Shown: positions 752-55,538 of the stretch, in pieces
Position numbering within the stretch: the first letter of the stretch is position 1
Layout of the letters: each line of letters starts with the position of its first letter
DNA from: Podarcis muralis
Taxonomy: Eukaryota
Assembly (NCBI RefSeq): GCF_964188315.1
Contig: NC_135667.1
Location: forward strand, 14,136,001-14,200,000
Direction of reading: 5' to 3'
DNA: 64,000 nucleotides
Position numbers and translations under genes: made by a program
Notes under the pieces: generated by a model
What the model saw: the letters and a program-made list of their open reading frames with translations, nothing else
Database searches by the model: none
Told to the model about the DNA's origin: nothing

Positions 752-819
752 ATTTTGAGAAGTGGAATGCTGTTACCTGTAAAGAGAAAAATGCCTTTGT
801 CTGTAAACAATCATCCTAA
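752..819 (+). CDS. C-type lectin A, last coding exon (rest of gene lies upstream of the window)
   Basis: tttag| acceptor, phase 1; translates (D)FEKWNAVTCKEKNAFVCKQSS*, matching exon 6 of paralogs B, C and E (W-N-x-x-x-C...F-x-C-K); AATAAA at 1015-1020. Confidence 0.88.
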
Positions 820-1519
820 AGAAGATTGTAGTTCCCTTCGCTGGACTCTAGCCCGCTGGAAATCTTTCTGATCTCAGTACCTCCTCTTCCAGTCCTCAAA
901 GTGAAAGAGGGGTTCTCATTCATCACTTTAAAAATGACCATAACTGAAGAGCTGCCACTTTGGTTCCCCTCTTCTCCACAAATTTTTATTGTGCCTACAC
1001 CCCACTATGAACTTAATAAATTCTCTTGGATGCACATATTTCCTGGTGTGTTTCTGTCCTTCGCAATCCACTCAGACTGCTCTAAGATGATCATCCAAGA
1101 AATATATGGGAAGTTGGCTTATACTAAGTCAGACCATAGGTCCATCTAACTCAATAATAGACACATTGAATGGCAGTGGATTTCCAGGTTCATTCAGACA
1201 GGGGACATTCTCTGTCCCACCTGTAGATGCTGGAGATTTATCTTGGGACACCTAAGGTGGACTGCAAGGGTCTCCTTTCATAAGTGTGAAAGTACAAGAG
1301 AACATTTCACTAGATGGTGCTTCGATTGAAGCAACCCTACATTGCCAGCTGCACCTATGCAATTTCCTGTCCTCTGTGGCATACACACCGTACCACAAAC
1401 ATTGACATCTGACACCAAGGTCACTTCAACACCATACATTTAAAGCACTCTTTACATCACAGTTATAGCTTCGTCCAAAGAATTCTGGGAAATGCACTTT
1501 GTTAAGGGTGCTGAGTTAT

Positions 1520-2334
1520 TATGGATGGCTGCTAAGAGATTGAGGTTGAATCCTGACAAGACAGAAGTACTGTTTTTGGGGGACAGGAAGCGGGCAGGTG
1601 TGGAGGATTCCCTGGTCCTGAATGGGGTAACTGTGCCCCTGAAGGACCAGGTGCGCAGCCTGGGAGTCATTTTGGACTCACAGCTGTCCATGGAGGCACA
1701 GGTCAAATCTGTGTCCAGGGCAGCTGTTTACCAGCTCCATCTGGTACGTAGGCTGAGACCCTATCTGCCTGCGGACTGTCTCGCCAGAGTGGTGCATGCT
1801 CTGGTTGTCTCCCGCTTGGACTACTGCAATGCGCTCTACGTGGGGCTACCTTTGAAGGTGACTCGGAAACTACAACTAATCCAGAATGCGGCAGCTAGAC
1901 TGGTGACTGGGGGCAGCCGCCGAGACCATATAACACCGGTCTTGAAGGACCTACATTGGCTCCCAGTACGTTTCCGAGCACAATTCAAAGTGTTGGTGCT
2001 GACCTTTAAAGCCCTAAATGGCCTCGGTCAAGTATACCTGAAGGAGCGTCTCCACCCCCATCATTCTGCCCGGACGCTGAGGTCCAGCGCCGAGGGCCTT
2101 CTGGCGGTTCCCTCATTGCGAGAAGCAAAGCTACAGGGAACCAAGCAGAGGGCCTTCTCGGTAGTGGTGCCCGCCCTGTGGAACGCCCTTCCAGCAGATG
2201 TCAAAGTGATAAACAACTACCTGACATTCAGAAGAATGGGAAGTTTTTAACGTGTGATATTTTACTGTATTTTTGGTTTCTATGGAAGCTGCCCAGAGTG
2301 GCTGGGGAGGCCCAGCCAGATGGGCGGGGTATAA

Positions 2335-2368
<34 letters not shown>
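1520..2368 (+). mobile_element. L2 LINE, 5'-truncated, (TAT)n tail
   Basis: RLRLNPDKTEVL, LDYCNALYVGLP and LHWLPVRFRAQFKVL motifs (ORF 1492-2250); 3' end gcccagagtggctgggg...gggcggggtat followed by a TAT microsatellite. Confidence 0.92.
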
Positions 2369-2389
2369 GAGTCCTCACAGTGTGGGATA

Positions 2390-3185
2390 ACCAGTCTTCT
2401 ATAGCCACATTTTTGCACGGCCAGATCTAGGAAGAGATTTATATGGAACAGCCCCAATGTTTTATCAAACCAAAGTGCATCTAGTATGCAAACTTCAGAA
2501 GGGGCTTTATGGATTAAAATATGCTGCTGGAGCATGGAATGAGAAACTATAGAGCATGCTCAAAGAGCTGGGGTACACACAAGGTCATGCAGACATGTGT
2601 GTGTAAACCAAGTGCAAAAAATAAATAGTTTTCTTACGTTTTGGCATTTGTGGATAATCTAATGATTGTAACTGAGAATAACCAAGACTATACAGAGGTT
2701 GTGGAATACCTGAGCAAAGAAGTACAGTCGTACCTTGGAAGTTGAATGGACTCCGTTCCGGAAGTCTGTTCGACTTCCAAAATGTTTGGAAACCAAAGCG
2801 TGGCTTCTGATTGGCTGCAGGAAGCCGCAGAAGCCCTGTCAGTCGTTCAGCTTCCAAAAGAATGTTTGAAAACTGGAACAGTCACTTCCGGGTTTTGATC
2901 GTTTAGGAGCTGAAATGTTTGAGAACTAGGCTGTTCGAAAACCATGGTAGAGCTGTAGAGGTAAAGGAAATGGGAACTGTTTCTTTCAAATAGTGAGAGA
3001 AGAGCTTGGATCTTATCTCCTAATTCAAAAGCAAAAGGTTATTGAATTTCTTGACAGCCTAGGGCTGAAAGAAACCAAGCAAGTAGCCACTCCAATGGTG
3101 ACTGATTTTCTAGAGGGTAAAGATGAATCTGAACTCTTGCCAGACAACAGCCAATACAGGTCAGCTGCAGCACAGCTCCTGTACT
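2390..3185 (+). mobile_element. Ty1/Copia reverse transcriptase remnant (degenerate), interrupted by a MITE
   Basis: Frame-broken peptides resembling TFLHG..EIYMEQP, VCKLQKGLYGLK, AFVDNLMI and ATPM...QYRSAAAQLLYL, typical of Copia RT (RVT_2). Confidence 0.75.
2723..2957. mobile_element. Tc1/mariner (Tigger-like) MITE
   Basis: TA-cagtcgtaccttgg ... ccatggtagagctg-TA: imperfect TIRs with a TA target duplication; inserted into the Copia remnant. Confidence 0.8.
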
Positions 3186-8429: not shown

Positions 8430-8500
8430 CCATATATGGGTAAGTGCTTCATCTTTCTTCCTGCCTTTCCATGCCCTGCCCTAGCCCAGCTCTATATAAG
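8430..8500 (+). promoter_or_regulatory. Lectin B core promoter: CArG box CCATATATGG (8430-8439) and TATATAAG (8493-8500)
   Basis: Both motifs recur at the same spacing in the lectin C promoter; non-coding exon 1 (~8520-8577) ends at gg|gtaagt. Confidence 0.75.
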
Positions 8501-8782
8501 AATGATCCCAGCAGCCTGAGACACAGACCTGCCACTGTAGGAAGCACCATTCATATCCTGAACAGGACAGAGCTTGGGTAAGTTGCAGGTCGGGATGAGC
8601 GAATCTGACAATTTTGGTCTCTTTCAGTCTTTCACATCAGCTGCCAATTTTCTTTTTAAAAAACCAGAATAACAGTGAACTTCTTCCAATCTACACATTT
8701 CTGGAATCATTTCTCCTTTCTGTAATGCACTTCTAATGCTATTTTCATGTATATGGGCATTTTTATGCATGCTGTATCCTAG

Positions 8783-9037: not shown

Positions 9038-10163
9038 TTGCATCGTTCTACACATTCCATGGCTGTCGAACTGCACTGCCCATCATGTCTGTTCTGAGGA
9101 ACTGAAACCAGATTTTAAGGAAGCACGGCTTTCGAAGAAATGGGACACTACCCGCCTTCCTTAGATACTAAAACTGATGAGGATTTGTCCCATGAAAATT
9201 TTCTCAAATTCATTCATGAGCCCAGTCAGCTGTAGTCAGTCCTTTTGTGCAGCAAGCATCCTAAGGAGACACTGCAGGGGAAGGGAATCGGTGGGATAAG
9301 CAAAGGGGCAGGAAAATTCACTGTGCTTGATGCAACAAGGGCAAAGCTCCTGTGGATCTACGTCAAGCAGATTTCCTGACAATGCGGCTGCTGATTTGCA
9401 CTTTATTTGGGGGCTGCCATCTGTACTGCACTCTATGCACTCAATGAACTATCTGTATTCTTATGCCAGCAGAGCTCGATTGATTACTATCAATTGCTTT
9501 CCAGCAGAATCATAAGTGTGTTTGTGAGGTGGGACATGGCAGGTGACCTGCCACCATGAATCCTGGCACTGCCCAGGGCATAAGGTTTTGTGGGAGTTTT
9601 CTTTGTTGCCCTTCATTGGCTCCAATGGAAGGGGATAATTAGTTACACCATTTCCAGGCAGGTTCTGATGGTGTCCCACCTCTGGGGCCTCTTGCATGAA
9701 TCAATAAGATTGGATTAAGCAGATCCAAAGCAATCTCTGTCCTTCCTTTGCCTGTCTGTGGGGCTACCACCAGGGAGTACCCTTTGCTCCCTGAGCTCCC
9801 TGTGCCCTTCTGCCAACAAAGATCTTTTTCTTCCTGCCATCACCACATGGACAAAATGGCAATCAGTGGGGATAGGTTTTGATTTACTGTACTTTCCTTT
9901 CCATAAAAGGTCAACCAGAAGATGGAACATGGTCAGCACTGGGTGCCTCTGCACACGAACCTTATTTGACTCCATGATACTTCAACAATCGCCAACTTTA
10001 AGTTTTGGGTTCTCTCTTCTTTCTCTAATCTTCCCATTTATGATTTTAAGAACAGAAAATACTGATTTACTTCTTCCTGCTATCACCACATTGACAATGC
10101 CAATAAGTAAGGATAAGTTTTTAATTTGCTGCACATTTCCTTCCACTGAAGGTCAACCAGAAG

Positions 10164-10224
10164 ATGGGGGTTGTCACCTACCTTTGCCTTTTTGGTTTCC
10201 TGGTCTCCTATTCTTTCCCAGGAG
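10164..10224 (+). CDS. Lectin B exon 2 (signal peptide)
   Basis: ag|gtcaaccagaagATG; MGVVTYLCLFGFLVSYSFPG+G|gtgagt; 61 nt. Confidence 0.92.
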
Positions 10225-10629
10225 GTGAGTGCTTTAACAATTATCTGGGAATTCCCCAGAAATTTTAATTGGGGTTAAGCATTTATAAAAACAAAACTAC
10301 TTGTCAGATTTCCAGGTGATGGTAACCCAGCTAAGGCTGTTGGAATAAATAACCAGGCAATGGAAGCAGGTCCATTAGGGTGAATAGGGAACTGCCCTAC
10401 CAACCTCAGTCTGCTCTGAACCACTCCTCATATTCATATTTACAACCAGTCAGGGAGTGGCACTGCCTGTCATTGACTCTGAATCCACTTACTGTTTGCC
10501 TCCCTGCTTTCTGTCCCACTTTTCTGTGCAAATTTGTAGGTGAAGTAGGATTCCACAATGAAAATTGCATTCGAACAGCTTTTGTCCCCCCCCCCATCTT
10601 TTTCTTCTTTTACTCCTCTCTCCATACAG

Positions 10630-10721
10630 TAAAGGCCAGATCCTGTCCCAGGAATTGGCTGAAAGCCCAGGGCAGCTGCTATGCATATTTTGACTCTCAG
10701 AAAACTTGGTCTGAAGCTGAG
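10630..10721 (+). CDS. Lectin B exon 3
   Basis: catacag|; (V)KARSCPRNWLKAQGSCYAYFDSQKTWSEAE|gtaag; 92 nt. Confidence 0.95.
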
Positions 10722-11800
10722 GTAAGAAGCTGTTTCTCACCAACCAAGCTGTCACATCAGGTGCTGTCATGGGTTTCAGATGACATTTTTGTGAGGAGGG
10801 CTATCAGTGTGAGCTGTTGGGAGACAATACCTGGCCAGCATCTTGGTATAATCAAAAGAGAGTTGCTCACCCATTGTGTTCAATTAACCTGTTTCCACAG
10901 GAGCCAAGAAAGCTTAATTAACAGTCAGGAGAGATGGCCTGGCAAGAAGGTACCATCTCACAAGTGAAAAGATGTGAGATATCTCTGCCCCTTTGTCCCT
11001 CCAGCTTGCATGTGAGCAGGAGGGACCTCAGGGCTCACTCAGCTGGGGGGGGGGGGAGTGGAGCCTTCCCACCCCCAAGCCAAGCAGCGCAAACAAGATG
11101 TGTCATCCTCAGCTCTGCAGGGTGTTGGGATGAAAGTGCCTCATCTCTTGCAATGAGAGCTGTGGCCGTTTTACCCCATGCCTTGAGGGCTGGGGCCAAT
11201 ACAGATTGTTGTTTCAACATCATGGTGTATCGACAGATTGTGATGTTTGGCTGGTGATACATCATGGTGTTGAAAACCTGACATCACCCAGCTAGTTAAG
11301 AACAACTATTTCAAACATTAAGATAATAGTTAAATTCAAGGATAAGCTCCAAAACCAGATTAAAACACAGGTCAACATTCTGCATAACTGCATAGGCTTG
11401 TCTAAACAAAGATGTTTCCAGCATCGGCTGAAAAGAGTTCAGCCAAATCATGACAATGAGCATCCTTCCTGCATTCATCCCAGTTTTTGTGTATGAGCTT
11501 CAAGGTGGTTTTCTTGCACCAAGATTGAGTGCTTTAAGCACCTTTAATTGCACTCGTGTGCAGCAGGTCCAGCAGGTTTCTTTAGTTTCCCAGCAGGTCC
11601 AGAGGATGGAGAAAGGGGCCTGGCTCCACTCACAGCATTTTCTTCACCCCTTTTTCTCTCTTCCTTCCTCAGCTGCTTTAGTTCCTATTTGAAAAACTTC
11701 CAACTCTCCACCACTGGTGTTTTATGATTTTTAAATAATTGTTATTGCTTATTTGACAAGTTGTGAACCACTCTGGGAAAGCTTTGTGGGAAAGAGTCTT

Positions 11801-11845
<45 letters not shown>

Positions 11846-11887
11846 GTAATAGCAGTTGAACTTATTTACTTGCTTGGCTATTCTCAG

Positions 11888-12028
11888 AATGAGTGCCTAA
11901 GCTATGGCTGTGGGAGCCATCTTGCCTCCATCCTCAATGAGAAAGAGTCAGATGTGGTGGCCAATTACATCTCTGCACACCAGAAAAATGCAAGCCAGGT
12001 TTGGATTGGGCTGCATGATCCCACTGAG
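11888..12028 (+). CDS. Lectin B exon 4
   Basis: ttctcag|; NECLSYGCGSHLASI...VWIGLHDPTE|gtgagt; 141 nt; WIGL motif. Confidence 0.95.
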
Positions 12029-12570
12029 GTGAGTTGCCTTTACTTTCTCAATTTCAGGCCATTGTCACTGAGTAACAGCTTCTTAGCATCACCATTCCAT
12101 CCTTATCCGAATCGTCTCCCCATGTGACTCCAATATGTGACTTTTCCACAATTTTCTTATAGAATCCTCCTCTAATATTGTTGTGGTAGTGGGGAGATGA
12201 TTAACATATTCAATCCTCCTGGCAAACTGGGAATAATATCCCCTCACTCACCCAAGTTTAGGATGTTCCACCATTCTCCAGCAGAGTTTCTTGTTCTTTG
12301 AGGAAAATAAGTGGCTCACGTAAATGTAAACTAAGCTTTGAATAATAAAGAAAACTGTAACAAAATAACAAAATAAGAGAAACTAAATACAACAACATGA
12401 GGCTAGTCTGAGGCAAGAAGCGAGAAGATGCAGTTGGTCCCTCTTAACTGATATTCTTAACGGAACACAGACACTGAAGGGAGGGGCTCCGGAGCAAAAC
12501 ACACAAGTCCCGCCCACCAGATACCAAGCACTCTACTATTCAAATTAGGTCCCAGTGTTTTTCCTACAAA

Positions 12571-12824
12571 TACAATCGTACCTGGTTCTCGAACACCTTG
12601 TGACTCAAATGTTTTGGCTTCCAAACACCGTAAACCCGGAAGTGAGTTTTCCAGTTTGTAAACGTTCTTTGAAACCCTAACGTCTGATGTGACTTCCGTA
12701 GCTTCTGATTGAGTGCAGGAAGCTCCTGCAGCCTATTGGAAGCCACACTTTGGTTTTTGAATGTTTTCGAAATTCGAACGGGCTTCCGGAAAGGATTCCA
12801 TTAGAGAACCAAGGTACAACTGTA
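12571..12824. mobile_element. Tc1/mariner (Tigger-like) MITE in lectin B intron 4
   Basis: TA-caatcgtacctgg ... ccaaggtacaactg-TA; same family as 2723-2957. Confidence 0.78.
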
Positions 12825-12936
12825 TCTCCATCATAAACTGGCAATAGCTTCATAACTGGCCAACTCTCCACGTGATCTTTGCATTGGCCGCCTCGTTTCG
12901 AATGAATGTATGATCTGTTCTATCACATTGCTGCAG

Positions 12937-13051
12937 AAAGGACATTGGAGGTGGTTGGATGACGAGATCTACAATTACAAACGCTGGGATTCTCATCGCC
13001 CAGACAACTACAACAATGAAGAATATTGTGTGCATCTGCTAAAGGACGCAG
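12937..13051 (+). CDS. Lectin B exon 5
   Basis: ctgcag|; KGHWRWLDDEIYNYKRWDSHRPDNYNNEEYCVHLLKDA+G|gtaagc; 115 nt. Confidence 0.95.
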
Positions 13052-13724
13052 GTAAGCAAGCAATTTGTAGGGACTGATCAAAAAAAGGTTTCATGCCTAT
13101 CACTCCATCAGTTTCAAGTATTTCAAAGGGTAGTATCTGATTTTAAAAACCAGAAAAATCAAACTCAAAATACTCTGGTTAGTCATTGCTACTGATGGTT
13201 CATTCATTTGAAAAGGTTTACTCTGGGTATTAGATGAGTAAATACAGTGGCAGAGCTTCATGCTCTGGCACTGGGGGGGCGGAGAGCAGGTGGGGGCGGG
13301 GCTGGTGCACATCCTGGGGGCAGGGGGGGCTGCTTGCAGGGCTGGGGTGCCCAGCACTGGTGGGGGGAAGCCACGATGGCACCCTGCCCAGATCGCCCTG
13401 CTAGGGGCAGGGCACTCCCCTCTCACTCCTCATCCTCTGCCAGTGAGTGGATACACTCTCAGCCTGGTGCTTCTCTGTACTAAGGTTCACAAGTCAATAT
13501 CTCTGGAGATCTGACCAGAAGTGGTCCAACTTATTGATCCTTTAGGGACACTTCCAATCATACCATGAAGCAGAATCTTTTTCTGCAGTCAACCTTCATT
13601 CTTCGGTTGCATGTGATCACATATTTTGTTCAGAAAACAGTGGTTGCCAAACTAAGGTCTGGGTTATGCCATCTTATATTCTATCATGTTTCTTAACAAA
13701 ATGATTAGGCTCAAAGAGCATTTT

Positions 13725-13880
13725 TCTTCTTCTTCTTCTTCTTCTTCTTCTTCTTCTTCTTCTTCTTCTTCTTCTTCTTCTTCTTCTTCTTCTTCTATAC
13801 CCCACTCATCTGACTGGGTTTCCCCAGCAACTCTGGGTGGCTCCCAACAGAATATTAAAAGCACAATATAACATATAAGA
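13725..13880 (-). mobile_element. L2 3' tail fragment with (GAA)n microsatellite tail
   Basis: Reverse complement of the L2 3' end (cccagagttgctggggaaacccagtcagatgagtggggtat) abutting (TTC)n. Confidence 0.85.
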
Positions 13881-14214
13881 CTTTGAAGCCAGGTGATCAG
13901 TGAGTGACCTTCATATGTTTTGTTAGTTCTGGGTCACAGCCCTGCTGTGAGTCTTGAAAAGTCCAGACTCACTGGAACAAACTCTGGGGTTGGGGCAAAT
14001 GTTGAAAATGCTTTTAAATTTAAAATTTTTAATCTGTGGCGTTTTAAATTTGGGTTTTTTGTTTTGTTTTTGCTCTGTCGGGGGGGGGGGGGATAAACAT
14101 TTAGTTGGGCCTGGGGATTAGTTTAACTTTAGTATAATTATAAATTGTTTGTTGCTGTTGCTTTCTACTGCTTTATTGGTTCATTGTATAGTTTGTATTC
14201 TGTTCTGAAGGGGA

Positions 14215-17058
14215 GAGGGTCAGGACTGTCTGGGAGTGGGCCCCAGTCAACAGAATGGCTGGGGTGCACTTGGACACCTGATCTCAGTGATCATGGGTAG
14301 GAGGAGGCGTGACGCTAAGACCAGACCATGTCATTAACGAGGAGGCAGGTTTAGTTGTTGTTTGAAGACTATCCCTGCCTCTGGGTCTGGTCTTGACCAC
14401 AAGGATACTGGAATCAACAAGGGAGACCCACATTACCTGAAGGTGCTGCTGTGCAATGCCAGGTCAATGATTCACAAGACCACTGAGATCCACGGCAGGA
14501 TGGAGGACTTGACCTGGCATGTGTAACAGAGACTTGGCTGGATGAAGAAGATGGCCCTGTCCTTGCCACTGCTTGTCTACCAGGTTTCTCTTACACAGCA
14601 ACCCAGCTCATATGGGCGGGGAGGCGAGGTTGCAGTGAGTTTTAGGAAGTCAATAGCTTGCACCAGGCGTCCTATTGGGAAGACCCAGTTTTCTGAGCGT
14701 GTGTTCTGGAAGTTGGACAACAGGGGCAGTACAGGATTCCTTTGGTGTACTGACCTCTCTGCTGTACCAAGGATTCCCTGCCTGAGCTGCTTCAGGTGGT
14801 GGCGGATGTTCTCCTGGAGACACCTAGTTTGGTTGTCCTAGGGGATTTAACATCCATGCTGATACGACCTTACAAGGCACTGCTTGGGACTTCGTGAAAA
14901 GCATGACCTCCATGGGGATGTCCCTGAATGAATTTCACCCAACTCATTGTTGCGGACATGCCTTAGACCTGGAGTTCACCTCTATGGATGTGGGTGATCT
15001 GACACTAAGTAAAAGCGAAACAAAAGAAGTGCCATGGTCAGATCACTTCCTGGTGCCACAACCCTTTCCCTCTGCAGGGAGGTGGGACTGATTTGGACCC
15101 CCCCTCCACTTAATGGATTCAAATGGTTTCCAGAGTGTAGTAGGGGATGTTTTATCTCATGTTGATGGCCTTTCAGCTGATTCCCCGGTGGCCCGCTGGA
15201 ATGCGGAGTTAAGCAGAGCTATCGACTGTCTGGCTCCAAAGCGCTCTCTCCAACTGCATGGAGCCTGGCAGCCTCATTGTTTTCCCCAAACCTGAGGGTG
15301 ATGAAACAATCACTGTGGTGGCAATAGCGCCAGTGGTGGAAATTGGACCAGAAACGGGTTAGAGCTCAACGTCAAACCTACCAAGTGGCAATAGCGACGG
15401 TGAAGAGGTCCTTCTTCACTGCCTCTATTGCATCTGCAGAAAACAGCAGCAGGAGACTCTTTCAGGTGGTTCACAGTCTAACAGAACCACCTTCACCATT
15501 GGGGCCTGGTAAGGACCCCAAGATCTCCTGCATTGATTTTGCAACTTTTTTGCAGGCAAAGCCGCTCAGATTCGGAAAGAGGTAGATGCCATCATGGGAG
15601 CAGGGCTGGAGCAGGAGAGTGCTAGAGTCCTGTCTATTCCAGTTGCATGGGATCAGTTCCAATCTGTTACCTCCGAGGATGTGGACAGGCTGCTTGGATG
15701 AGTGAAACTGACCACCTGTCTCCTCGATCCTTGCCCATCCTGGCTCATAAAAGTGAGCCGGGAAGGGCAGGGTGATGGGCTCCGGGGGATAGTGAATGCT
15801 TCCCTCTGTGAGCAAGCGTTCCCGGAACCGCTGAAAGAGGCAGTTATTAAACTGCGTCTTTAAAAAACATCTTTGGACATGGCCAATATGGACAACTATC
15901 ACCCAGTATCAAATCTTCCATTCTTGGGCAAAGTGACTGAGCAGGTGGTTGCTGAACAACTCCAAGCACGCCTGGAGGATGCGGACCATTTGGATCCCTT
16001 CCAATTGGGATTCAGGCCTCATCATGGGACTGAAACTGCCTTGGTCACGCTGGTCAATGATCTCTGGTGGACTAGGGACAAAGGTGAAAGCTGTTTCCTA
16101 GTTCTGCTGGATCCCTCAGCGGCCTTTGATACCATCAACCATGGCAACCTTCTGGACTGTCTAGAGGCGCTAGGAGCTGGGGGCACTGTTATATAGTGGT
16201 TCTGCTCCTTCCTCCTGGGCCATGTTCAGAAAGTGGTGGTGGGGGCGAGTGCTCAGACCCCTCACTTGTTGGGTGCCTCAGGGTTCTGTCCTCTCCCCCA
16301 TGCTTTTCAACATCTACATGCAGCCGCTGGGAGAGATCATCAGCGGGTTTGGGCTGGGTGTTCATCAGTATGCGGATGATACCCAGCTCTACCTCTCTTT
16401 CAAATCAGAACCAGTGAAGGCGGTGAAGGTCCTTTTTGAGTGTCTGGAGGCAGTTGGGGGATGGATGGCAGCTAACAGATTGAGGCTGAATCCTCACAAG
16501 ACAGAAGTACTGTTTTGGGGGGACAGGGGGATGGCAGGTGTGGAGGACTCTCTATGTTCTGAATGGGGTAGCTGTGCACCTGAAGGACCAGATGTGCAGC
16601 CTGGGACTCATTTTAGACTCACAGCTGTCCATGGAGGCATAGGCCAATTCTGTGTTCAGGGCAGCTGCCTACCAGCTCCATCTGGTAAGCAGGCTGAGAC
16701 CCTACCTGCCTGCAGACTGTCTTGCCAGAGTGGTGCATGCTCTAGTTATCTCTCGCTTGGACTACTGCAATGCGCTCTGTGTGGGGCTACCTTTGAAGGT
16801 GAGCCAGAAACTACAACTAATGCAGAATGCGGCAGCTAGACTGGTGACTGGGAGTGGCTGCAGAGACCATATAACACTGGTCCTGAAAGACCTACATTGG
16901 CTCCCACTACGTTTCTGAGCACAATTCAAAGTGTTGGTGCTGATCTTGAAAGCCCTCAATGGACTCAGCCCAGTATACCTGAAGGAGTGTCTCCACCCCC
17001 ATCGTTCAACCTGGGCACAGAGGTCCAGCTCTGAGGGCCTTTTGGTGGTTCCCTCACT
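14215..17058 (+). mobile_element. Long degenerate L2 LINE (APE endonuclease + RT) in lectin B intron 5
   Basis: KVLLCNARSM..K and LACVTETWL (APE); [42 protein letters not shown] and YADDTQLY (RT); many frameshifts; 3' tail missing. Confidence 0.92.
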
Positions 17059-17089
17059 ATTATTAAAGTCTGAATCCATTTTATTCCCC

Positions 17090-17332
17090 CAGTGTGGTGT
17101 GGTGTAGTGGTTAAGAGCGGTGGACTCGTAATCTGGTGAACTGGGTTTGATTCCCCGCTCCTCCACATGCAGCTGCTGGGTGACCTTGGGCCAGTCACAC
17201 TTCTCTGAAGTCTCTCAGCCCCACTCACCTCACAGAGTGTTTGTTGTGGGGGAGGAAGGGAAAGGAGAATGTTAGCCGCTTTGAGACTCCTTAAAGGGAG
17301 TGAAAGGCGGGATATCAAATCCAAACTCTTCT
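17090..17332 (+). mobile_element. tRNA-derived SINE (squamate family, exact name uncertain)
   Basis: A-box gtgtagtggtt and B-box gtttgattcc; near-identical copy at 35001-35240. Confidence 0.85.
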
Positions 17333-17413
17333 ACACATTGGGGAAAGGAATAATAGGCAATAAGAAGTAACTTTCCTTATTTCTTGAATTACAATTTTTG
17401 TTTTGAATTTCAG

Positions 17414-17475
17414 GTTTTAAGAAGTGGAATGACGTAAAATGCAACAACAAGTACGCCTTCATCTGCAAGCAATAA
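17414..17475 (+). CDS. Lectin B exon 6
   Basis: tttcag|; (G)FKKWNDVKCNNKYAFICKQ*; WND motif. Confidence 0.95.
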
Positions 17476-38750: not shown

Positions 38751-38780
38751 ACATCTTGGTTGAGGAGAAATATTTCTTAC

Positions 38781-38872
38781 CTCAGCATCTCTCCATGACA
38801 ACTTGGTATCAAAATATCCATAGCAATTACCCTGGTTTTGCAGCCAACCATCAGGACAGGACAGGGCCTTGG
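38781..38872 (-). CDS. Lectin D exon 3
   Basis: cctcatag|; (A)KALSCPDGWLQNQGNCYGYFDTKLSWRDAE|gtaag; 92 nt. Confidence 0.95.
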
Positions 38873-39459
38873 CTATGAGGAGAAAGGAACAAATAGTAAG
38901 AAGGTTGTTCTTTATGTGAAATCTTATTTTAGCTACACTGCTAAAAGGGGTGACTGCTTTGAGCAATCACAGATAATTTTGAAACCAATGAATATAGGTC
39001 TAACCTAAACCATTGCTCTAATAGCCTTAACTGGGTAACCATCGCTTGAAAATATAACAAGCACTATTGATATAATGCCACTTAACCCAGATAAAGATTT
39101 CTACAGCTCCTCTCATGCTTTTTTGGTCTCATGGCCTGCCTCAAAGATGAGCTATGTAGACTGAAAGGGGCAAGGCAATGTAAAACTGCAGAAAGAGAGA
39201 CAGGCAGACAGAGCATAAAAGTGTGAAAGAAGGCAGAGTGTGAAAGAAGGATTGTCCCCAAGGAGGGAATAGAGAACTGGCTGGAGACACAACAGCTGAG
39301 GATAAGCTGAGGAGAAACAACAGCTGAGGATAAGAAGAGCAGCACAGGTTAAAAGCGTGAAACAGAGAGATAAGGAGGTGGAGGAGGTTATATGCAAGGG
39401 AGGTTATATGCAGAGGGAAGGGGAAAAGTGAAGAAAGGAGAGAAATAGATTGAGAAAAT

Positions 39460-39970
39460 AAGAGAAGCTTTTTTACTAGGAATTCTAGGTGCATAAATAC
39501 CAAAGGAGCAGAAAAGACTATTCATGTATGTGACGACAGCTGCGCAAATACTATTGGTCCAGAGATGGAAGGAAGATAAAGTTCCGACCAGAGAAGAATG
39601 GTTGATAAAGATGATGGACTACGCTGAAATGGCAAAAATGACTGGGAAGATCAGGAATCAAGAAGATAATACATTTAATAAAGGATGGGGGGGGGATTTA
39701 TAAGTTACCTTGAAGAATACTGCAAACAATTAAAAACATTGGCAGAATTATAACAACACTTGTAACGTAACAAGTGCTATGGTATGACTTGAATTTTAAG
39801 AATAAATAGAGAACATTATATGATGCAGGTGGGTAAAGGTTAACAATGGAAGCCATGGAGGAGTAGAGGGAAGTCTAAGGATTCAGGGAATCCTATATTT
39901 TTATGATTTTGATTTATATTTGAGTGAAAATGTTAAATGTAAAACTGAATTATTATTATTATTTTAAAAG
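39460..39970 (+). mobile_element. L1-clade 3' fragment in lectin D intron 2
   Basis: EAFLLGILGA...LFMYVTTAAQILLVQRWKEDKVPTREEWLIKMMDYAEMAKMTGKIRNQ. Confidence 0.8.
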
Positions 39971-40451
39971 AGAAAACAAGAGAAGCAGAAAGATGGTAAG
40001 GGCAAGAATAAGCACTACCAAAGGAGGATTCTTATTCCAGCAGAGCCCAGATGTGAATAGAGAACCAAAATATTCAAAGAGTGCAATAGGACTGTCATTT
40101 GGTGAACAGTGTTCTTTCCTTGAGGATATGTTTGAAAGACAATATTATCTTGGAAGCTTTCTCAGAGTAACATTATCTCAAACTTGACATTGCTAAGCAA
40201 GCTTGAATTCCTGAATTGTGATAGTAACTAGGATTACAAGCCCAAGAAGGGTTGATATAAAGAGTAAGATAGTAAGGGAATATTAATCATAATTCTCTTG
40301 TGTCTGCATTCTTGATTGCCTGCCATAATATTATGACTTAGACTTAAAAGGGGGGGAATAAATGAATTAATTATATTTATATGGACACCTGAAGGACTAG
40401 GGGTAAATAGTTTGCATTGGGTAATTCTAAAAAATTGGTTAAAATGCTCAC

Positions 40452-40518
40452 CTCCTGGAAAAGAACCGGAGACCAGGACTCCAAGAAGACAACAGGCGAA
40501 GGAGGTAACAAATCCCAT
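40452..40518 (-). CDS. Lectin D exon 2 (signal peptide)
   Basis: aaag|gtctaccacaagATG; MGFVTSFACCLLGVLVSGSFPG+G|gtgagc; 67 nt. Confidence 0.92.
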
Positions 40519-40785
40519 CTTGTGGTAGACCTTTTGTGGAAGAGGAATGTACAGTGAATTCAACAAATACCTCCACTGATTGCCATTCATCCCAAGTGGT
40601 GATGGAAGAAAGAAGGACATAAACATTGTCTACTCTTAAATCACAATTCTACTTTATTTGAACTTCTAAGAACTATGAAGATTAGAGAAAGATGAAAGAA
40701 ACAAAAGCTTGACGTTTATCAGTGTTGACGATTCATTGAGCTATACAATGTTGAGATTAGAAGGGACCTTGGAGACCATATGCTC

Positions 40786-42148: not shown

Positions 42149-42248
42149 CCAGGTCCAGTCCTTTTGAGGTGATGGGTAACTCTTTCCACAGGCAAGCCTG
42201 ACTCCCAAGTTGGCTGCCTTAATTATTATATGAAGCTTTGTCAGGTCA
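42149..42248 (-). promoter_or_regulatory. Lectin D non-coding exon 1 (donor after 42149) and TATA-like box (~42225-42231)
   Basis: Reverse strand catataataattaaggcagcc...ctgg|gtaagttgg, homologous to exon 1 of B, C and E. Confidence 0.7.
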
Positions 42249-47954: not shown

Positions 47955-48022
47955 TTACAGCTCTTGCTTGCAAATGAAGGTATTCATTTCATCACAGATT
48001 CTATCATTCCACTTCCGTAAAT
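47955..48022 (-). CDS. Lectin E exon 6
   Basis: tttcag|; (D)LRKWNDRICDEMNTFICKQEL*; 68 nt. Confidence 0.95.
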
Positions 48023-48332
48023 CTGAAATTTGAGATAATAGACTCATACATCAGTTTGGCAACCACTGTTTTCTGGATAAAATATATAAGTGAAGATAAT
48101 TACATGCAACCAACCTATGCAGACTGGATGTAGTCAAAGCCTTCTAACTCATGCTCAACAAATGGACCCCTGCTGATTTGGTGTACAGAGTAATTAATTT
48201 GTGAACCTTGGTACAGATAAGCACATGGCTGAGTGTTGTATCCAACCAACTCAATCTCAGAGTAAACTCTTTAAATTTAATGGATTGTAGGTAGCAATGA
48301 GGTATGAGTGATGATTGTAGGTAGTGATAAGA

Positions 48333-48687
48333 GGGACGCGGGTGGCGCTGTGGGTTAAACCACAGAGCCTAGGACTTGCTGATCAGAAGGTCGGTGGTTC
48401 GAATCCCCGTGACGGGGTGAGCTCCCGTTGCTGGGTCCCTGCTCCTGCCAACCTAGCAGTTCGAAAGCACGTCAAAGTGCAAGTAGATAAATAGGTACCG
48501 CTTCGGTGGGAAGGTAAACGGTGTTTCCGTGCGCTGCTTTGGTTCGCCAGAAGTGGCTTAGTCATGCTGGCCACTTGACCCGGAAGCTGTACGCCGGCTC
48601 CCTCGGCCAATAAAGCGGGATGAGCGCAGCAACCCCAGAGTCGGTCACGACTAGACCTAATGGTCAGGGGCCCCTTTACCTTTACCT
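48333..48687 (+). mobile_element. Sauria SINE in lectin E intron 5
   Basis: gggacgcgggtggcgctgtgggttaaaccacagagcc head, B-box ggttcgaatcc, (ACCTTT)n tail; ~11-bp TSD taggtagtgat at 48318-48328 and 48687-48697. Confidence 0.93.
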
Positions 48688-48820
48688 AGGTAGTGATGAC
48701 TAAGTACAACTTTGTTAGATACAATCTTGAGAAATATTGGCAACGGATGAAGAAGCAGATGGCAATGTAAAATCCAAGATGCAAATGTCTTCTTCTCAAC
48801 CCTGGAAATGTTTTCCTTAC

Positions 48821-48935
48821 CAGAGCCGTGCAGCAACTCCACACAATACTCCACGCCATCCACGTTGTTTGGTTCCCCTGTTTTCCAGCTTCGGTAATTG
48901 AAGGTTGATTCATCAGCCCACCTCCAACGCCCATT
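48821..48935 (-). CDS. Lectin E exon 5
   Basis: cctgcag|; NGRWRWADESTFNYRSWKTGEPNNVDGVEYCVELLHGS+G|gtaagg; 115 nt. Confidence 0.95.
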
Positions 48936-49444
48936 CTGCAGGAATGATATGGAAGAGATCATGCAGTCATTTGAAATGAGGAGCTCCGTTAAAAGATCAT
49001 GTGGAGCATTGAAACAAAATAAAGAAATTCCTTCCAGTAGCACCTTAGAGACCAACTAAGTTTGTTATTGGGTTGTTATGTGGAGCATTGGTCAGAGTGA
49101 AGCGATTGCCATTTAGGATGGAGATATTAGAGGACCCCCATAAACATAATGGAGAAGTTAAATATTGGATTAATCCTGGGAGATGATTGAGATAAGGACT
49201 GAATGGTGGTGTTAAGAAGCCACTATTCAATGATTAGGGGTGCCAACTTGAATAAAATATTGGGAAGGGAGCTGGTAAGGCAAGGCCCCTATAATCTATC
49301 ACACATTTGAATGACAGTGCCCAATAATGGGGGGAAGGGGCTGGCCCCCTCAAATATTTTATGGGGGGAGGGACCTCAGCCCCTAGGAGTTGGCTCCTAC
49401 ATCACTGACAATGGCCTGAAATAGAATAAGAGTAGACAACTCAC

Positions 49445-49585
49445 CTGCCGGGGATCTTGGAGCCCAATCCAAACATTACTTGGATTTTTCTGGTATGTGG
49501 CAATGTGCTTGGCTACCAAGGCTGCCTCTTTCTCAGTGAGGATAGAGGCAAGGTGGGTCCCACGGCCATAGCTCTGGCACTCAAT
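49445..49585 (-). CDS. Lectin E exon 4
   Basis: tttttag|; IECQSYGRGTHLASI...VWIGLQDPRQ|gtgagt; 141 nt. Confidence 0.95.
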
Positions 49586-50691
49586 CTAAAAATGGAAGAA
49601 ACGAAGGATACTTTGTCACAATTCAATGCCCCACTAGCATGGGCGGGGGATGAATTCAATTCAGTTCCCATTTAAAAGCCAATCCCTCACGTTCAAATTG
49701 TCCAACAAGAAGAAAAAAAGATAAGGAAGGAAGGAAGGAGACTGAAACACAGCCATATATTGAAATTCACACTTAAAGAGCATGCATTAGGGGAAAGTCT
49801 GCATTAAAAGGAATCCATGGGTGAAGACAACATGTACAATGAATCATATGAGGGGAAAGGTACAAAACTGCATAGAAAACTGTGTTTGCCAGGATAAATT
49901 TGAACTAAAATGCTGAAGAATTTTCATGAGAAATAAATAAATAAACAAACAAACAAATGACAGATTGCTGCAGAAATGTGAGGAACGGAATTTAAAATTG
50001 GAAGAATGAGATACTGCAAGAAAAACACACACCACATATTCGTACCTACCAATACCAAAGTGAAATTCTCAAAAGGTGAGGTTCCCTGTGGAACTTGTCA
50101 GATGCAATGTTACTATTCTGACAGCACCTCCAGGCTCTGAGTATTTTGCATGAGGAATTGAAGGACATACCAACGTACAATTAGAGGGAATAAAAATGAT
50201 CTGTGATTTTAGGGCAATAAATCTACTACAGAAACAATAATTTTTGAGGTTAGGAAAGTGATGGAGAAATGCTTAGAAAAGTGTGGGATGGATGGACGAT
50301 TAATAGGATGTTATATAAACACTCATGCAAATTAAGATGAATGTTCATTGTTGTATAATCTCTCTACATTCTAATAGCCACTTAAGGTTTTTGAAACCAA
50401 ATAAGGAAACATAGCTGAATACAAATATCACATGAGGGAGCTGTAAACTGGTCTAACAAACTGAAAATCAGCATTATTTTAATTGTTAATATTGTGAAAG
50501 CTTCAGAAAGACAGAATATGTGTTTGGCTATATTTAAGGAAATCTGAGCTTTGAAGGATTTCCTTTGGAATATCAAACTGATATTAGCTCAAGCTCTGCA
50601 ATCCAGGAGGTTAACTTTCCATCCATCTGGCTGCATTCTTTTTTTGACACTCCAGACCACACAACCCACTAGTAAACCATAGGATGTAAAC

Positions 50692-50926
50692 CAGCCTTTC
50701 TCAACCTGTGGGTCCCCAGATGTTGTTGAACTACAACTCCCATCACCCCTGGCTAGCAAGGCCAGAACTCAGGGATGATGGGAGTTGTACATAGCTGTCA
50801 ACGTTCCCCCTTTTTAAAGGGAAATTCCCTTATTCTGAATAGGATTCCTTGCAAGAAAAGGGAAAAGTTGACAGCTATGGAGTTGTAGTACAACAACATC
50901 TGGGGACCCACAGGTTGAGAACTGCT
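50692..50926. mobile_element. Palindromic MITE with a nested 90-bp hAT-type mini-element (50790-50879)
   Basis: Outer ends tttctcaacctgtgggtccccagatgttg ... caacatctggggacccacaggttgagaa; inner TIRs catagctgtcaac/gttgacagctatg with 8-bp TSD gagttgta (50782-50789, 50880-50887). Confidence 0.88.
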
Positions 50927-51059
50927 TAAACCAACCCGTTCTCTAAAGCTATGAAGATTTGCAGGAGTGTAGCATTTACCTTGGGTTGGTAAAGCCACTT
51001 CCGCGCTGGAGAGGAGGTGGGGTTGTGGGCCCCATGCCCACTTCACATGCATGGGGGCT

Positions 51060-51767
51060 GACTCACAGCCCCCACAAGACTGGAGGAATCCTCGGACATG
51101 TCATCCCCATGGCCAGCCAATCGGCTGGCCAGGGAGGCGTGGCCTGGGCTAATTAGGGCTGGTGCGGCTAAGGATTTCCCTCTCTTCTTCGCTCCAGCTG
51201 CTCTGATTTCCCACCCCGCCCACCCTTAGGTTTGGCTCTACGACATTGCTATGGACTTCGGTTGGTCGCCGTCAAGGGGCCTGGTAGGAATTTTTTCCAC
51301 TTGGCAAATTGGCACCAACCATTTGGTTTTTCGCCTACCTCGTAGCAAATCGTCACAACATCCTCAGCATTGGCGGTTAGGCATTGGTAAGGGTGTTGTT
51401 ATGCAGATGGGGGGGGGGGAGGAAGCGCCATCACCTTCCCCCAAAGTGAAGGGTAGTCCGGTAAAGGATTCCGGGGGGGCGTTGCCCTGTCTGAAGCCTA
51501 TGGAGGTGTGGGCCTAAGGCACGCCCCCGAGCGGTGACCCCGGGGGAGCTCCTAGTTGATGTACATCAGCAGGACTCCCCCTACTGTCGGCTAACCCTTG
51601 CCGGTCTTCAAGCAATCAGGCCGAAGCCGGTTAGTCGATAGGACCAATGCCTAAGCCAATACCGCTCAATTCCTGCAATCAATAATGGGCCTTTTTCGCC
51701 CATTAACCTTAAACGCTGTGTCTTGTGTCTTATTTTCCAAGGGGGGAGGCGGGTACTCGCCAGGCAA
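51060..51767 (+). mobile_element. Coding-less relative of the YR element (terminal segments joined) in lectin E intron 3
   Basis: ~51067-51135 aligns to ~45100-45175 and ~51368-51767 aligns to ~47058-47472; no ORFs between. Confidence 0.8.
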
Positions 51768-52133
51768 ATCCCTTTGGAAGTCACAGGAAGCTAAGTGGCC
51801 TCTTGTAATATCTGAGTCTATTCACAAATATGCATGTTGAGCACAGGTGGAGGGTCAAAACAAACACTTCAATAAGCCCAAGTTTGCATATTCCAAATGA
51901 TCTCTACAGAGGCAAACAATGTCTGACCCCCCCCCCCCCTTTTTAGCCCACATGCCTTTTCCTAAAACTGCACACTATTGTTCTTTTCATGCACAGATGA
52001 CTTCTTTCTTCTCCTGGGTTGGTAAACTACTTCACCTTATCATAACAAATCAAATCTCTTTTGTTCAGTCTAAGATGCTTCTCGTGTACTTTCACATAAC
52101 ATTATGCTTTCGTAGGAGAGGGATGTGCCTTAC

Positions 52134-52225
52134 CTCAGCATCTTCCCATGACATCTTAAAATCAAAATAAGCATAGCAGTTGCCCTGGTTTTGCATCCAG
52201 TCCCTGGGACATGAGCTGGTCTTCG
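52134..52225 (-). CDS. Lectin E exon 3
   Basis: catacag|; (A)KTSSCPRDWMQNQGNCYAYFDFKMSWEDAE|gtaag; 92 nt. Confidence 0.95.
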
Positions 52226-52382
52226 CTGTATGGAGAAAGAAGGAAGAAAAGAAAGAGGTTTGCTCTTTAGCTATATCATTAGTGATTCCATGAGGAAAAC
52301 ACATAATATTTTAAAACCCTGCTCTTTTGTCCCAATAGGATTAGCTGGGCAAGCTCTCCATTCAAAATCTAAGGAGTACCTT

Positions 52383-52383
<1 letters not shown>

Positions 52384-52433
<50 letters not shown>

Positions 52434-52848
52434 TTTATTTATATCCCGCCCTCCCCAGCCGAAGCCGGGCTCAGGGCGGCTAACAACAATAAAATAGTAC
52501 AACATTCTAAAATCATTTCACTATAAAATTAATTCAAATCAAATTGATGGCAACCATTAGGCTAAAGTTCTGTGAAGATTGCCAAAGGAGGGAGTCAGGC
52601 TGTGCCCTGACCAAAGGCCTGGTGGAACAACTCTGTCTTGCAGGCCCTAGGGAAAGATGTCAAGTCCCTCAGGGCCCTAGTCTCTTGTGACAGAGCGTTC
52701 CATCAGATTGGAGCCACAGCCGAGAAAGCCCTGGCTCTAGTTGAGGCCAGCCTAACCTCTCTGTGGTCTGGGACCTTCAGGATGTTTTTGTTTGAAGACC
52801 CTAAGTTACTCTGTGGGACATACCAGGAGAGGCAGTCCCGTAGGTACG
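52384..52848 (-). mobile_element. L2 LINE 3' fragment (second subfamily) in lectin E intron 2
   Basis: Closely similar to 40786-41260, with a (TTA)n tail. Confidence 0.9.
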
Positions 52849-52908
52849 ACTGCTTAGTGACTGCTTAGTCCTATGCCAGACTTCTGGGTGATTTGGTATA
52901 ATGCTCAC

Positions 52909-52975
52909 CTCCTGGGAAAGAACTCGAGACCAGAATTCCAAGAAGGTAAAGGCTGAACTTGGTGACGAATCCCAT
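52909..52975 (-). CDS. Lectin E exon 2 (signal peptide)
   Basis: ttccaaag|gtaaacaaaggaagATG; MGFVTKFSLYLLGILVSSSFPG+G|gtgagc; 67 nt. Confidence 0.92.
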
Positions 52976-53399
52976 CTTCCTTTGTTTACCTTTGGAAAAG
53001 AGTAATGTACCATGAATTCAAGAGGTGCATTCATGGAATGTCATTGATCCAGAATGGTGATTGAAGAGAGGGGAAAGTAAGTATTTTTCTGTATTTTTCT
53101 GTATTTAAAATAACAATTATCTTTTATTTGAACTTTTATTTGAAGTTTAGAGGAAGAAGAAAGAATTTAAAGTTTCAAATTGTCAGGGTTGATGAATCAT
53201 ACACGCTAATGGGACTTCCACACTAGGAATTTAAATGTGGAATTGCCATTCTTTGCCTGGTAAAAGTGGAGTGAACTGTAAAAGTGGAGCTGTTGAAATG
53301 TAGAAAGCTTTATAGAGAAAGGTTGGAGACCATTGAGCAGGTGACTGTAAAACCCTCCAGCTGGAAGCACCTTAATTCTGGTATCTGTTTTCTGTATGG

Positions 53400-53592
53400 C
53401 AGGGGTGGCCAACTCCCAAGAGACTGCGATCTAGTCACAGAGTTAAAAACTGGCAGTGATCTACCCGCTTTTGCGGGGGTTCAGATCAAAGTTGTTGAGC
53501 TTCTTTGGAAGGAGCCAGTGATCTACCAGTGATCTACCACAGACATCCAGTGATCTACCGATAGATCACAAACTACCTGTTGGATGTGCCTG
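53400..53592. mobile_element. hAT (Charlie-like) MITE in lectin E intron 1
   Basis: caggggtggccaac ... gttggatgtgcctg; TSD ctgtatgg/ctatatgg (7 of 8 match); gatctacc repeats shared with 43157-43593. Confidence 0.82.
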
Positions 53593-54916
53593 CTATATGG
53601 AAAACGATTTACTCCCAAGCAAATGTGATGATTCAATATCAGGGTTGTTCCCCCCCCTCCAATGATCTTAACCTAGATTTCAATCTACTTTCTGCATTGT
53701 CCAGGCAGCTACACGTAAACAAACGGTTTTGCATATTCCTTATGTCAGAGGTATGTCATGTGGCCCTTTTAGAGGGTGTTGGACTGGAACTATCATCATT
53801 CTCAACCATTAGACATACTTTCTGGGGCTGATGGGAGTTGGAGTCCAGCAATATTTTGAGGTCTCAGGATTTCCCACCCCCTCCTAATGCAAACTCCAGG
53901 ATGTCAGCAGGAGTTGTAATTTGAACACACACCTTTCTTTCTCAAACAATCTCCATCTAATTGGCAGTAATCTAAGCAATCTGGATGTAGTGGGGATCTC
54001 CCCTGGATTTGAGTGCACTGGTCTCTTTCTTTTTTTAAAAAAATGCTTCTCCCTCTCAAAGTCTCCCAGTCATTCTTATCTTCTGAGCATCTATCCTCTT
54101 GCTCCCTTTCCAAACCAGCCTCAGAAACAGTGTCTAGTTTAACATAAAATGCAGGGGGCTTTAGTCCCATTCCTTCCTTAACTGTAGTAACTGTGTAAAT
54201 TAAGATTTTATATAGTGCAAACAAAATAGGAAACCCCATTAATACTTCATCCCTTGGTGCAGCCATAAGTTATGAGAGAGAAGAGCACACCTCCTCTGTA
54301 AGAGTATCCTGTAAGAATAGTAATGTACAGTATTGCTCTCAATCACACCATCAAGTCATCCTTTTTTTGCATATCTAGCAAAGCAAATAATCATGTTTGA
54401 GAAAGTTTGATGTCCTGTGTGTTTCTTTCCTGTGGCTTCAACCTGTGATTGGTTGCCTCCTAAATTTGATGGATAGGATATTGGAAAATTCTGCACCTGT
54501 ATTGGTTGAGGCACTATTTGGTGATGGTGCCTCTGCTCTGGCAGAGGAGGGTTTGGCTGGAAAATGGCATGGCTAGTTTGGCTGGTATGGGGTAGCCCAC
54601 TAGCATTATCCATCTAAACAAGGAGATATGGAGGGGCAGAGGCAGGACAGAGGTGGCCTTGCATGTGCTGAATAAAAATCACTGGAATTATCAAGGTGTT
54701 TCCCTCCCCTCGCCAATGATCTTTACTGATCTTACACAGCTGGGGAAATTCAATGGGAAATTCAACTGTGTTGAAAAATTCAAAGAGGAACCAATTTCAA
54801 AGGGTGGCTGTGTTTCAGCTCTCATATTGTTTCAGACAGTGCAAATTCAATAAGTTTGTCTTTGAATGGAAACTGAACGGAATTTCTCTCCATCCCCAAC
54901 CTCAATTCCAACTTAC

Positions 54917-55016
54917 CCAGGTTCAGTCCTGTTGAGGTGGTGGATTCCTCTTTCTACAGGCAAGTCTGTCTCCCAAGTTGGCTGCCTTAATTCTTATATG
55001 GAGCTTAGTCAGGTCA
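54917..55016 (-). promoter_or_regulatory. Lectin E proximal promoter and non-coding exon 1 (donor after 54917; ATATAAG 54993-54999)
   Basis: Closely homologous to the lectin D promoter/exon 1. Confidence 0.7.
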
Positions 55017-55454
55017 GAGGCAGGGGAAAGGAGGAATGAATGTTTAAAATTGGGGCTTGGCGAGGTCTAGTTTTTAGAAGAAAATAGGAAATGACTGAGG
55101 GGAGCTAAACTCCTCTCCACTCTTTGCCTCCTCATGCTATTTAATTTCCCCCTCTTTGGCTTAACTGGAATATAAGTAACTGTGGTGATGGAGGGTGGGG
55201 AGCTTAAACTGGGGAGTGTTCTACTTCTTCTACTACACACATGCCCTTGCTTCCTTCTCCTCAACTTCTCAACCCACAAACCCACATAGTATATGTATAC
55301 TCACTTACCTGTGGAAACTGAATGGGACTTTGCTGGAAGAAGGATGAGGACAGATATTTGGGTATAGGGTATAATGCTAGTGAGAGCCCCCAATACAAAA
55401 TATAAATCAGTAGCCATAGCATCAGAAATGAGTTTGCGATTGTCTCCAACTTAC

Positions 55455-55538
55455 CCAAGTTTCGTCCTGTGAGGTGATGGATATAGCGTTATGCAGGGGC
55501 AAGTTTGTCTCTGAAGCTGCTGCCTCGATTCTTATATA
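55455..55538 (-). promoter_or_regulatory. Second (distal) lectin-type promoter and non-coding exon 1 upstream of gene E
   Basis: TATATAAGAAT (55531-55538) followed by a sequence alignable to B/C exon 1 and an intact tgg|gtaagttgg donor. Confidence 0.7.

Follow-up and report, generated by a model that had tools for sequence, protein, structure and literature searches.

What gene family lies behind the C-type lectin cluster in a 64,000-nucleotide stretch of the wall lizard Podarcis muralis (assembly GCF_964188315.1; contig NC_135667.1, here C13, positions 14,136,001 to 14,200,000 of the forward strand; "the window"), and is this the kind of locus from which snake venom lectins arose? An earlier reading, made from the letters alone (the sequence-only reading), had described five lectin genes, A to E. 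The interpretation that we favor, with a probability of about 0.62, is that A–E are members of a 13-gene REG4-like array in an RNase A cluster, that their products are predicted to be secreted and are likely pattern-binding defence proteins of surfaces or glands, that the copies are likely dividing tissues and ligands, and that the classic venom lectins most likely come from a separate locus on C10.

The extent of the array was established by tblastn over 464 kb of C13, which located 13 lectin genes between 14.035 and 14.207 Mb. The five genes of the earlier description are real, but they form only part of this larger group. Models of exons 3–6 are complete and open in all 13. In array order, the genes and their site motifs are G1 (QPD), G2 (QPD), G3 (EPN with WID), G4 (QPD), G5 (APT), G6 (APN) and G7 (RPD), followed by A (QPG with WNA), B (RPD), C (EPN), D (TPD), E (EPN) and F (QPD). 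RNase A genes flank the array on both sides and also occur within it, and a KLHL33-type BTB gene and an APEX1-like exo/endonuclease gene lie upstream, an order of neighbours which we take to be that of human 14q11.2. Database entries already exist for at least A, D, E and F, and C has a same-species cluster member (P0287). A–E thus belong to an intact, partly annotated REG4-like array evolving by birth and death; the earlier view of a REG-like, single-domain family with birth, divergence and varied site motifs is borne out by the array itself, the tree and the substitution rates. No title describing the C13 array was found in a literature search, most subscription journals, bioRxiv supplements and tree figures being outside its reach.

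The features of genes A–E in the window are as follows.

752..819, + strand: last coding exon of gene A, with WNA; the site motif is QPG, and Lys replaces the conserved Glu; 2/5 Ca2+ site-2 ligands kept
8493..8577, + strand: TATA box and non-coding exon 1 of gene B, donor GT at 8578
10152..17475, + strand: coding exons of gene B (10152-10224, 10630-10721, 11888-12028, 12937-13051, 17414-17475), 156 aa, RPD/WND
12997..13005, + strand: site motif RPD of gene B
25080..25164, + strand: TATA box and non-coding exon 1 of gene C, donor GT at 25165
28478..31933, + strand: coding exons of gene C (28478-28550, 29017-29108, 29968-30108, 30496-30610, 31866-31933), 158 aa, EPN/WND, basic
30556..30564, + strand: site motif EPN of gene C
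35684..40530, - strand: coding exons of gene D (40530-40452, 38872-38781, 36892-36761, 36516-36390, 35763-35684), 165 aa, TPD/WND
36436..36444, - strand: site motif TPD of gene D
42149..42230, - strand: TATA box and non-coding exon 1 of gene D, donor GT at 42148
47955..52989, - strand: coding exons of gene E (52989-52909, 52225-52134, 49585-49445, 48935-48821, 48022-47955), 160 aa, EPN/WND, acidic
48867..48875, - strand: site motif EPN of gene E
54917..54998, - strand: inner TATA/exon-1 module of gene E, located upstream of its exon 2, with 89-90% identity to the D module
55455..55538, - strand: outer TATA/exon-1 module of gene E

The motifs RPD, EPN, TPD and EPN of B, C, D and E were recovered at the positions and on the strands that the sequence-only reading had given, as were WND in B–E and WNA in A. 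In B–E, all coding-exon boundaries carry AG/GT, the intron phases are 1,0,0,1 and the frames are open; each gene also has a TATA box and a non-coding first exon with a GT donor, which, added to the five coding exons, makes six. The common six-exon, same-phase layout claimed for the whole cluster therefore holds for B–E, whereas only the last exon of A lies in the window. Exons 2–5 of A were found upstream, at C13:14132885-14135695, and its first exon was not located; the model agrees with P0061 at 100% over 138 aa. Patterns of the exon-5 type numbered 4 in the window versus 0 in each of 20 shuffles. The net charges reported for the mature chains of B, C and E (0, +5 and -4) were reproduced when the chain was counted from residue 22 (B, C) or 24 (E); cleavage three residues later gives -2, +3 and -5, so that the choice of site moves them by 1–2.

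Gene E has the sequence of P0281. Relative to E, gene D carries one 3-aa deletion and two 4-aa insertions, and reads in frame only through an upstream AAG acceptor at 35763, the nearer CAG leading to a stop. The AAG model is identical to the database protein P0062, and the candidate status of D as a frameshifted pseudogene was rejected on the open frame that this acceptor provides. Another entry, P0002 (UniRef A0A670J5X8), combines E exons 2–4 with D exons 5–6, and is probably a gene-model error in which the two neighbours were fused. Gene E has two TATA/non-coding exon-1 modules (54880-55550, - strand), the inner one resembling the D promoter module (42110-42330, - strand); the identity between these two modules suggests promoter copying or conversion between the neighbours.

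The encoded proteins contain one C-type lectin domain (CTLD) with conserved Cys and Trp residues (20 invariant columns in 46 sequences) and no further domain; Pfam Lectin_C was found in D and E. Exon 2 encodes a hydrophobic N-terminus of 20–22 aa, and the C13 lectins are predicted to be secreted. The predicted structure of D shows the canonical fold, with a mean predicted local distance difference test score (pLDDT) of 85.4, although this fold carries no information on ligands. The mature chain of B has seven Cys residues, and its recent twin, G7, lies upstream. In B (exon 11888-12028), G7 and A alike, the seventh Cys looks unpaired and could allow dimers.

By the established rules for CTLDs (Drickamer/Weis), EPN confers binding of mannose/GlcNAc/fucose-type sugars and QPD of galactose-type sugars. 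By sequence, C and E have all five ligands of Ca2+ site 2 (E/Q-P-N/D, Glu and WND) and, with EPN, would bind mannose/GlcNAc/fucose-type sugars, while F, G1, G2 and G4 (QPD) would bind those of galactose type. B (RPD) and D (TPD) retain 4/5 ligands; since the first Glu/Gln is lost, they may bind sugar weakly or have another ligand. A, with the two ligands listed above, is probably not a Ca2+-dependent lectin. Under the favored interpretation, the duplicated copies would divide tissues and ligands among themselves, and the C13 lectins would bind patterns as defence proteins at surfaces and in glands.

The phylogenetic context was built from a search with the E orthologue P0001, which yielded 112 proteins from 127 candidates; most came from lizards and snakes, and the others included tuatara, turtle and lungfish sequences and a single mammalian REG4. 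A HMMER search with the same query was dominated by multi-domain lectins, only 3 of 150 rows being short single-lectin proteins (P0240, P0007, P0082). A quick tree was made on 115 rows and a careful tree on 53 of them, over 135 columns. The careful tree places the whole array of 13 genes within a single lepidosaur clade (96/83). Three left-end lineages, G1/G2/G4, G3 and G5/G6, are squamate-wide, since their groups also hold sequences of skinks, cordylids, anguimorphs, iguanians and snakes; the close partners of A, C, D, E and F, in contrast, are lacertid only among the matches found. The partner of B is G7, and these two group with C and an Anolis row at 94/85.

The site motifs do vary, but such variety is nothing unusual. 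In 101 rows outside the C10 group, 45 carry QPD, 27 EPN and 27 one of 13 other motifs, with 2 unread; the motifs were read by regular expression, and SHN, PPK and KSK are possibly misread. Members of the G5/G6 lineage from Sceloporus and Anolis carry RPD as well, and the grouping of RPD sequences in one clade was rejected by the approximately unbiased (AU) test (p-AU 0.0012), so that RPD arose at least twice, including once in an iguanian lineage. Site-motif variety had been published for snake lectins (PMC4999846 and PMC8742412). The idea of a lizard exploring odd motifs on its own is therefore not upheld: the family spans lepidosaurs, three of its lineages are squamate-wide, and the odd motifs are spread over a good quarter of these rows. 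G3 (G000:C13:14064538-14068022) keeps EPN with WID in lacertids, Rhineura, Hemicordylus, Anolis and two snakes, and this non-canonical site is thus conserved across squamates.

Rates of protein change differ along the array, being higher in A–F than in the left-end genes. Pairwise ratios of non-synonymous to synonymous substitution (dN/dS) are 0.13–0.18 among G1, G2 and G4 and about 0.37–0.61 among the A–F pairs tested. Synonymous divergence (dS) was lower in exons 3–4 than in exons 5–6 in 10 of 11 (non-independent) pairs, a contrast that may reflect exchange of 5' halves. For B/G7 the ratio is about 1.2, derived from few changes (18 non-synonymous, 4 synonymous), and B has no close relative among the matches, the best standing at 59%. 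Both values, like the lack of B and C exon signal in all four sequencing runs described below, would suit an account in which the odd motifs reflect relaxed constraint on redundant copies, with B, G7 and perhaps C drifting without a distinct ligand. We consider this quite unlikely, given the open exon 3–6 models throughout the array, the independent origin of RPD in the iguanian lineage, and the constancy of other odd motifs: TPD and both insertions of D are the same in three Podarcis entries, which are 98% identical, and the QPG of A is kept in four lacertid species.

Expression was approached through four sequencing runs, which were compared with D, E, B and C by contig depth and junctions. 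D is spliced in two of them. In X1, the D exon bins have depths of 12,000–67,000, implying 1.0–1.7 x 10^5 on the exons, versus 20–70 in repeat-free intron bins, and D appears very abundant in this run; a loose end at 36516 coincides with the end of D exon 4 (the exon 4/5 junction), and the exon-5 bins of B and C, at zero, serve as a silent control. X5, from a related but different organism, has one transcript-like contig that links 35763 with 36761 by 127 letters, as many as D exon 5 contains, and that uses the AAG acceptor. No D signal was seen in X16 or X14. X16 has 73 and 84 junction reads at the E exon 3/4 and 2/3 joints, and a depth of 0 in the E exon-6 bin, on which expression of E in X16 was discarded as a demonstrated result. 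E and F are identical at 83/92 and 129/141 positions in exons 3–4, compared with 48/68 in exon 6, and with E exon 6 empty the reads are likely from F. Of the two genes whose silence would have told against the earlier proposal, D is accordingly spliced, while B gave no exon signal in any of the runs.

A close described relative of the array is REG4, a group VII single-CTLD protein, with which it shares a putative signal peptide, one CTLD and the ECQSYGxG-HLASIL stretch. REG4 is the best solved-structure match for E exon 4 (51 bits to human REG4, 30 to venom lectins and 24 to struthiocalcin) and, among single-domain structures, for D (93.6 bits, versus 85.5 for struthiocalcin-1 and 76.5 and 73.1 for venom lectins). 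A profile ranking with A1 (REG4 163 bits, venom lectins 155 and 153) was discounted, since A1 holds two REG4-type rows. The array differs from REG4 in having 13 copies, most of which keep EPN/QPD and WND, which human REG4 lacks, and in its location: it lies on C13 among RNase A genes and not where REG4 usually lies, flanked by HMGCS2/PHGDH and NOTCH2/SEC22B. The 150 kb surrounding PHGDH/HMG-CoA synthase (C5:1.38-1.53 Mb) proved free of lectin exons, in agreement with section 12 of PMC8144736, according to which lepidosaurs and turtles lack REG4 at that locus. In the quick tree, the C13 family, REG4, turtle lectins and one C10 gene form a group with a value of 94 in the Shimodaira–Hasegawa-like approximate likelihood ratio test (SH-aLRT), with the branching order open. 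Descent of the C13 family from a moved REG4 copy is plausible on these comparisons.

The avian eggshell lectins (ovocleidin-17 and struthiocalcin; XCA-1/2) have the same fold as D, with a template modelling (TM) score of 0.87 to struthiocalcin, and the automatic name of D derives from them, sources calling it struthiocalcin-1-like or dromaiocalcin-1-like. A structural or mineral-binding matrix role in secretions like eggshell or skin-gland plugs, similar to that of struthiocalcin or ovocleidin-17, could be supposed for D and perhaps for further copies with odd motifs in place of a defence role. It would agree with this naming, with the placing of struthiocalcin-1 above the venom lectins, and with a protein that has lost the first Ca2+ ligand, appears very abundant in X1 and hardly varies among the three Podarcis entries. 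This role is nevertheless unlikely. The eggshell lectins score below REG4 against the C13 genes, D included, and D sits in the C13 clade. The flanks given for the eggshell-lectin locus in PMC8144736 are LMF2, NCAPH2, TYMP, ODF3B, CPT1B and CHKB; LMF matches were found on C10 and C14 only, the LMF gene being a marker of the eggshell locus type that lies on C10 and not on C13, where the flanks are RNase A, KLHL33-type and APEX1-like genes. No lectin exon was found around the C10 LMF gene (C10:75.09-75.29 Mb). The main text of a sand lizard femoral gland proteome (PMC9000839) contains 0 uses of 'lectin', and collectin-type lectins are mentioned for iguana femoral glands in PMC8143647.

The sequence-only reading had offered A–E as a model of the substrate from which venom C-type lectins (CTLs) arose, a proposal with which the position of the venom genes disagrees. 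The lizard genome holds a second group of about 20 divergent single-domain lectin genes at C10:72.87-74.12 Mb (72.87-73.19, 73.53-73.56 and 74.12 Mb), with motifs that include QPS, EPH, EPS and QAS. In Bothrops insularis, according to Table S1 of PMC12758475, ma-6 carries a lectin/snaclec array at 0.95–1.30 Mb, followed by PLB-1 (32.3 Mb) and HYAL-1 (65.7 Mb). The corresponding positions on C10 are 72.9–74.1 Mb for the lectins, 44.8 Mb for a phospholipase B and 19.7 Mb for two hyaluronidases, and the strands are inverted accordingly. The viper ma-6 is thus collinear with inverted C10, not with C13, by three markers at chromosome scale. Venom CTLs of Vipera are placed on chromosome 6 (9 in one species) in PMC12573727; no usable locus data were contained in the parts available of PMC6062510, PMC8075977, PMC8975721, PMC13248559 and 10.1101/2024.07.29.605543. 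Of the 115 rows, only that of a gene at C10:73.55 Mb has CYK.F and LCQ, and WTDRS occurs in it and in one other; these stretches are also seen in BJcuL. This gene scores 128.8 bits to BJcuL, and an entry of the same gene 92.5 to REG4. The last exon of its model (c10_73558) is wrong; of 3 candidates found with the C10 exon as query, 1 protein was obtained, and it was not a venom lectin. This separate C10 locus is the most likely source of the classic viper venom lectins.

The C13 family is nonetheless represented in snake glands. Entries labelled Hypsiglena and Philothamnus fall inside the C13 clade (96/83), nearer to G1–G6 (96/98) than to A–E; from their species names and source type, we infer that they are the orphan gland transcripts of PMC4999846. 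In the portion of that paper available, the Hypsiglena and Boiga transcripts fall outside the typical venom CTL clades of the published tree, and neither a genomic locus nor a lizard array is given for the orphan CTLs (Hypsiglena, Boiga, Phalotris). These belong to the same family as the C13 array, but differ from A–E in grouping with the left-end genes and in a Cys that precedes the HLAS stretch. The source of the orphan lectins of snake glands is the C13 family, in which A–E are not the closest lizard genes. Reptile CTLs are reported from several tissues, and venom CTLs are argued to have arisen from a widely expressed gene, in 10.1101/006031.

BJcuL, the rattlesnake lectin and the snaclecs resemble D in fold and length (TM 0.88–0.90 by target, 35–38% identity), and the galactose-binding venom lectins share WND and the conserved Glu with the C13 lectins. 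B–E, unlike the venom lectins, are without the C-terminal CQC end and mostly without the HLAS[IF]H, WTDRS and CYK.F stretches. In Foldseek, BJcuL and the rattlesnake lectin take the first places against the D model, and members of the C13 family occur in snake gland transcript sets. This might be taken to mean that the classic venom lectins and snaclecs originated in the C13 cluster and were later transferred to another chromosome. We regard such a history as very unlikely in view of the collinearity of ma-6 with C10, the chromosomal placing of the Vipera genes, the stretches carried by the C10:73.55 Mb gene and the published tree.

Several observations weigh against the interpretation favored here, and the first two also agree with a C13 origin. 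Whole-protein scores to BJcuL barely differ between the C10 gene (128.8 bits) and the C13 orthologues, those of G2 and E scoring 123.7 and 120.0 (near-equal scores hold for the rattlesnake lectin as well), and these two are about equally close to REG4 (123.7 and 121.5). The PGCHLAS stretch is common to the C13-family snake clade and the venom lectins (9/115 rows), and the trees contain no classic venom lectin. These trees, of 135 columns, have many open forks, and the monophyly of A–F was neither shown nor rejected (p-AU 0.25). NOTCH2 was not confirmed within the C5 stretch. The X1 run is RNA only by a program's guess, its tissue is coded, and contig depth reflects expression poorly; exon signal of B and C was lacking in 4/4 runs, in which contigs cannot show absence. 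Finally, the defence role is based on homology and neighbourhood.

A bolder scenario, tentative though not far-fetched, extends the favored interpretation: a REG4 copy would have entered the RNase A defence cluster in the ancestor of the lepidosaurs and given rise to an array not described before; snake oral-gland lectins would stem from two loci (classic lectins and snaclecs from the C10 type, orphan lectins from C13); and the wall-lizard D, with TPD and three indels, would, in one tissue, have become a dominant secreted protein whose ligand is a new sugar or no sugar at all. The presence of lectins of two loci in snake glands is a lead in its own right. Automatic names (BpLec-like, Cal-like, struthiocalcin-like, REG4-like) blur three different loci, and for work on venom and eggshell the appropriate lizard comparison is C10 for the classic venom lectins and the C13 array for the orphan gland lectins. 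Since tandem lectin arrays with varied motifs are otherwise common, the surprise is limited; as natural single-position variants beside EPN/QPD paralogues, however, B (RPD) and D (TPD) could serve to test the EPN/QPD rule directly on a glycan array.

Other sequences were noted around the lectin genes. An intron of G1 contains long retroelement-like open frames of 1374 and 375 codons (G000:C13:14039444-14044488, - strand). A single-exon frame of 354 codons (L014:6493-7554, - strand) occurs in at least five tandem copies, the others at C13:14.253, 14.270, 14.281 and 14.292 Mb, which partly alternate with RNase A copies; it has no Pfam family, its atlas matches are uncharacterised chordate clusters (0.94–0.98), and leads to aerolysin/ETX-MTX2 proteins are weak (0.78–0.79). 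In the B–C interval, where no gene was modelled, long low-depth X1 contigs (depth 7–12) cover 18853-21115 of the window. Between lectins E and F, a vomeronasal type 2-like class C G protein-coupled receptor gene (window 57847-62764, - strand) has ANF_receptor and 7tm_3 exons, both of them open.

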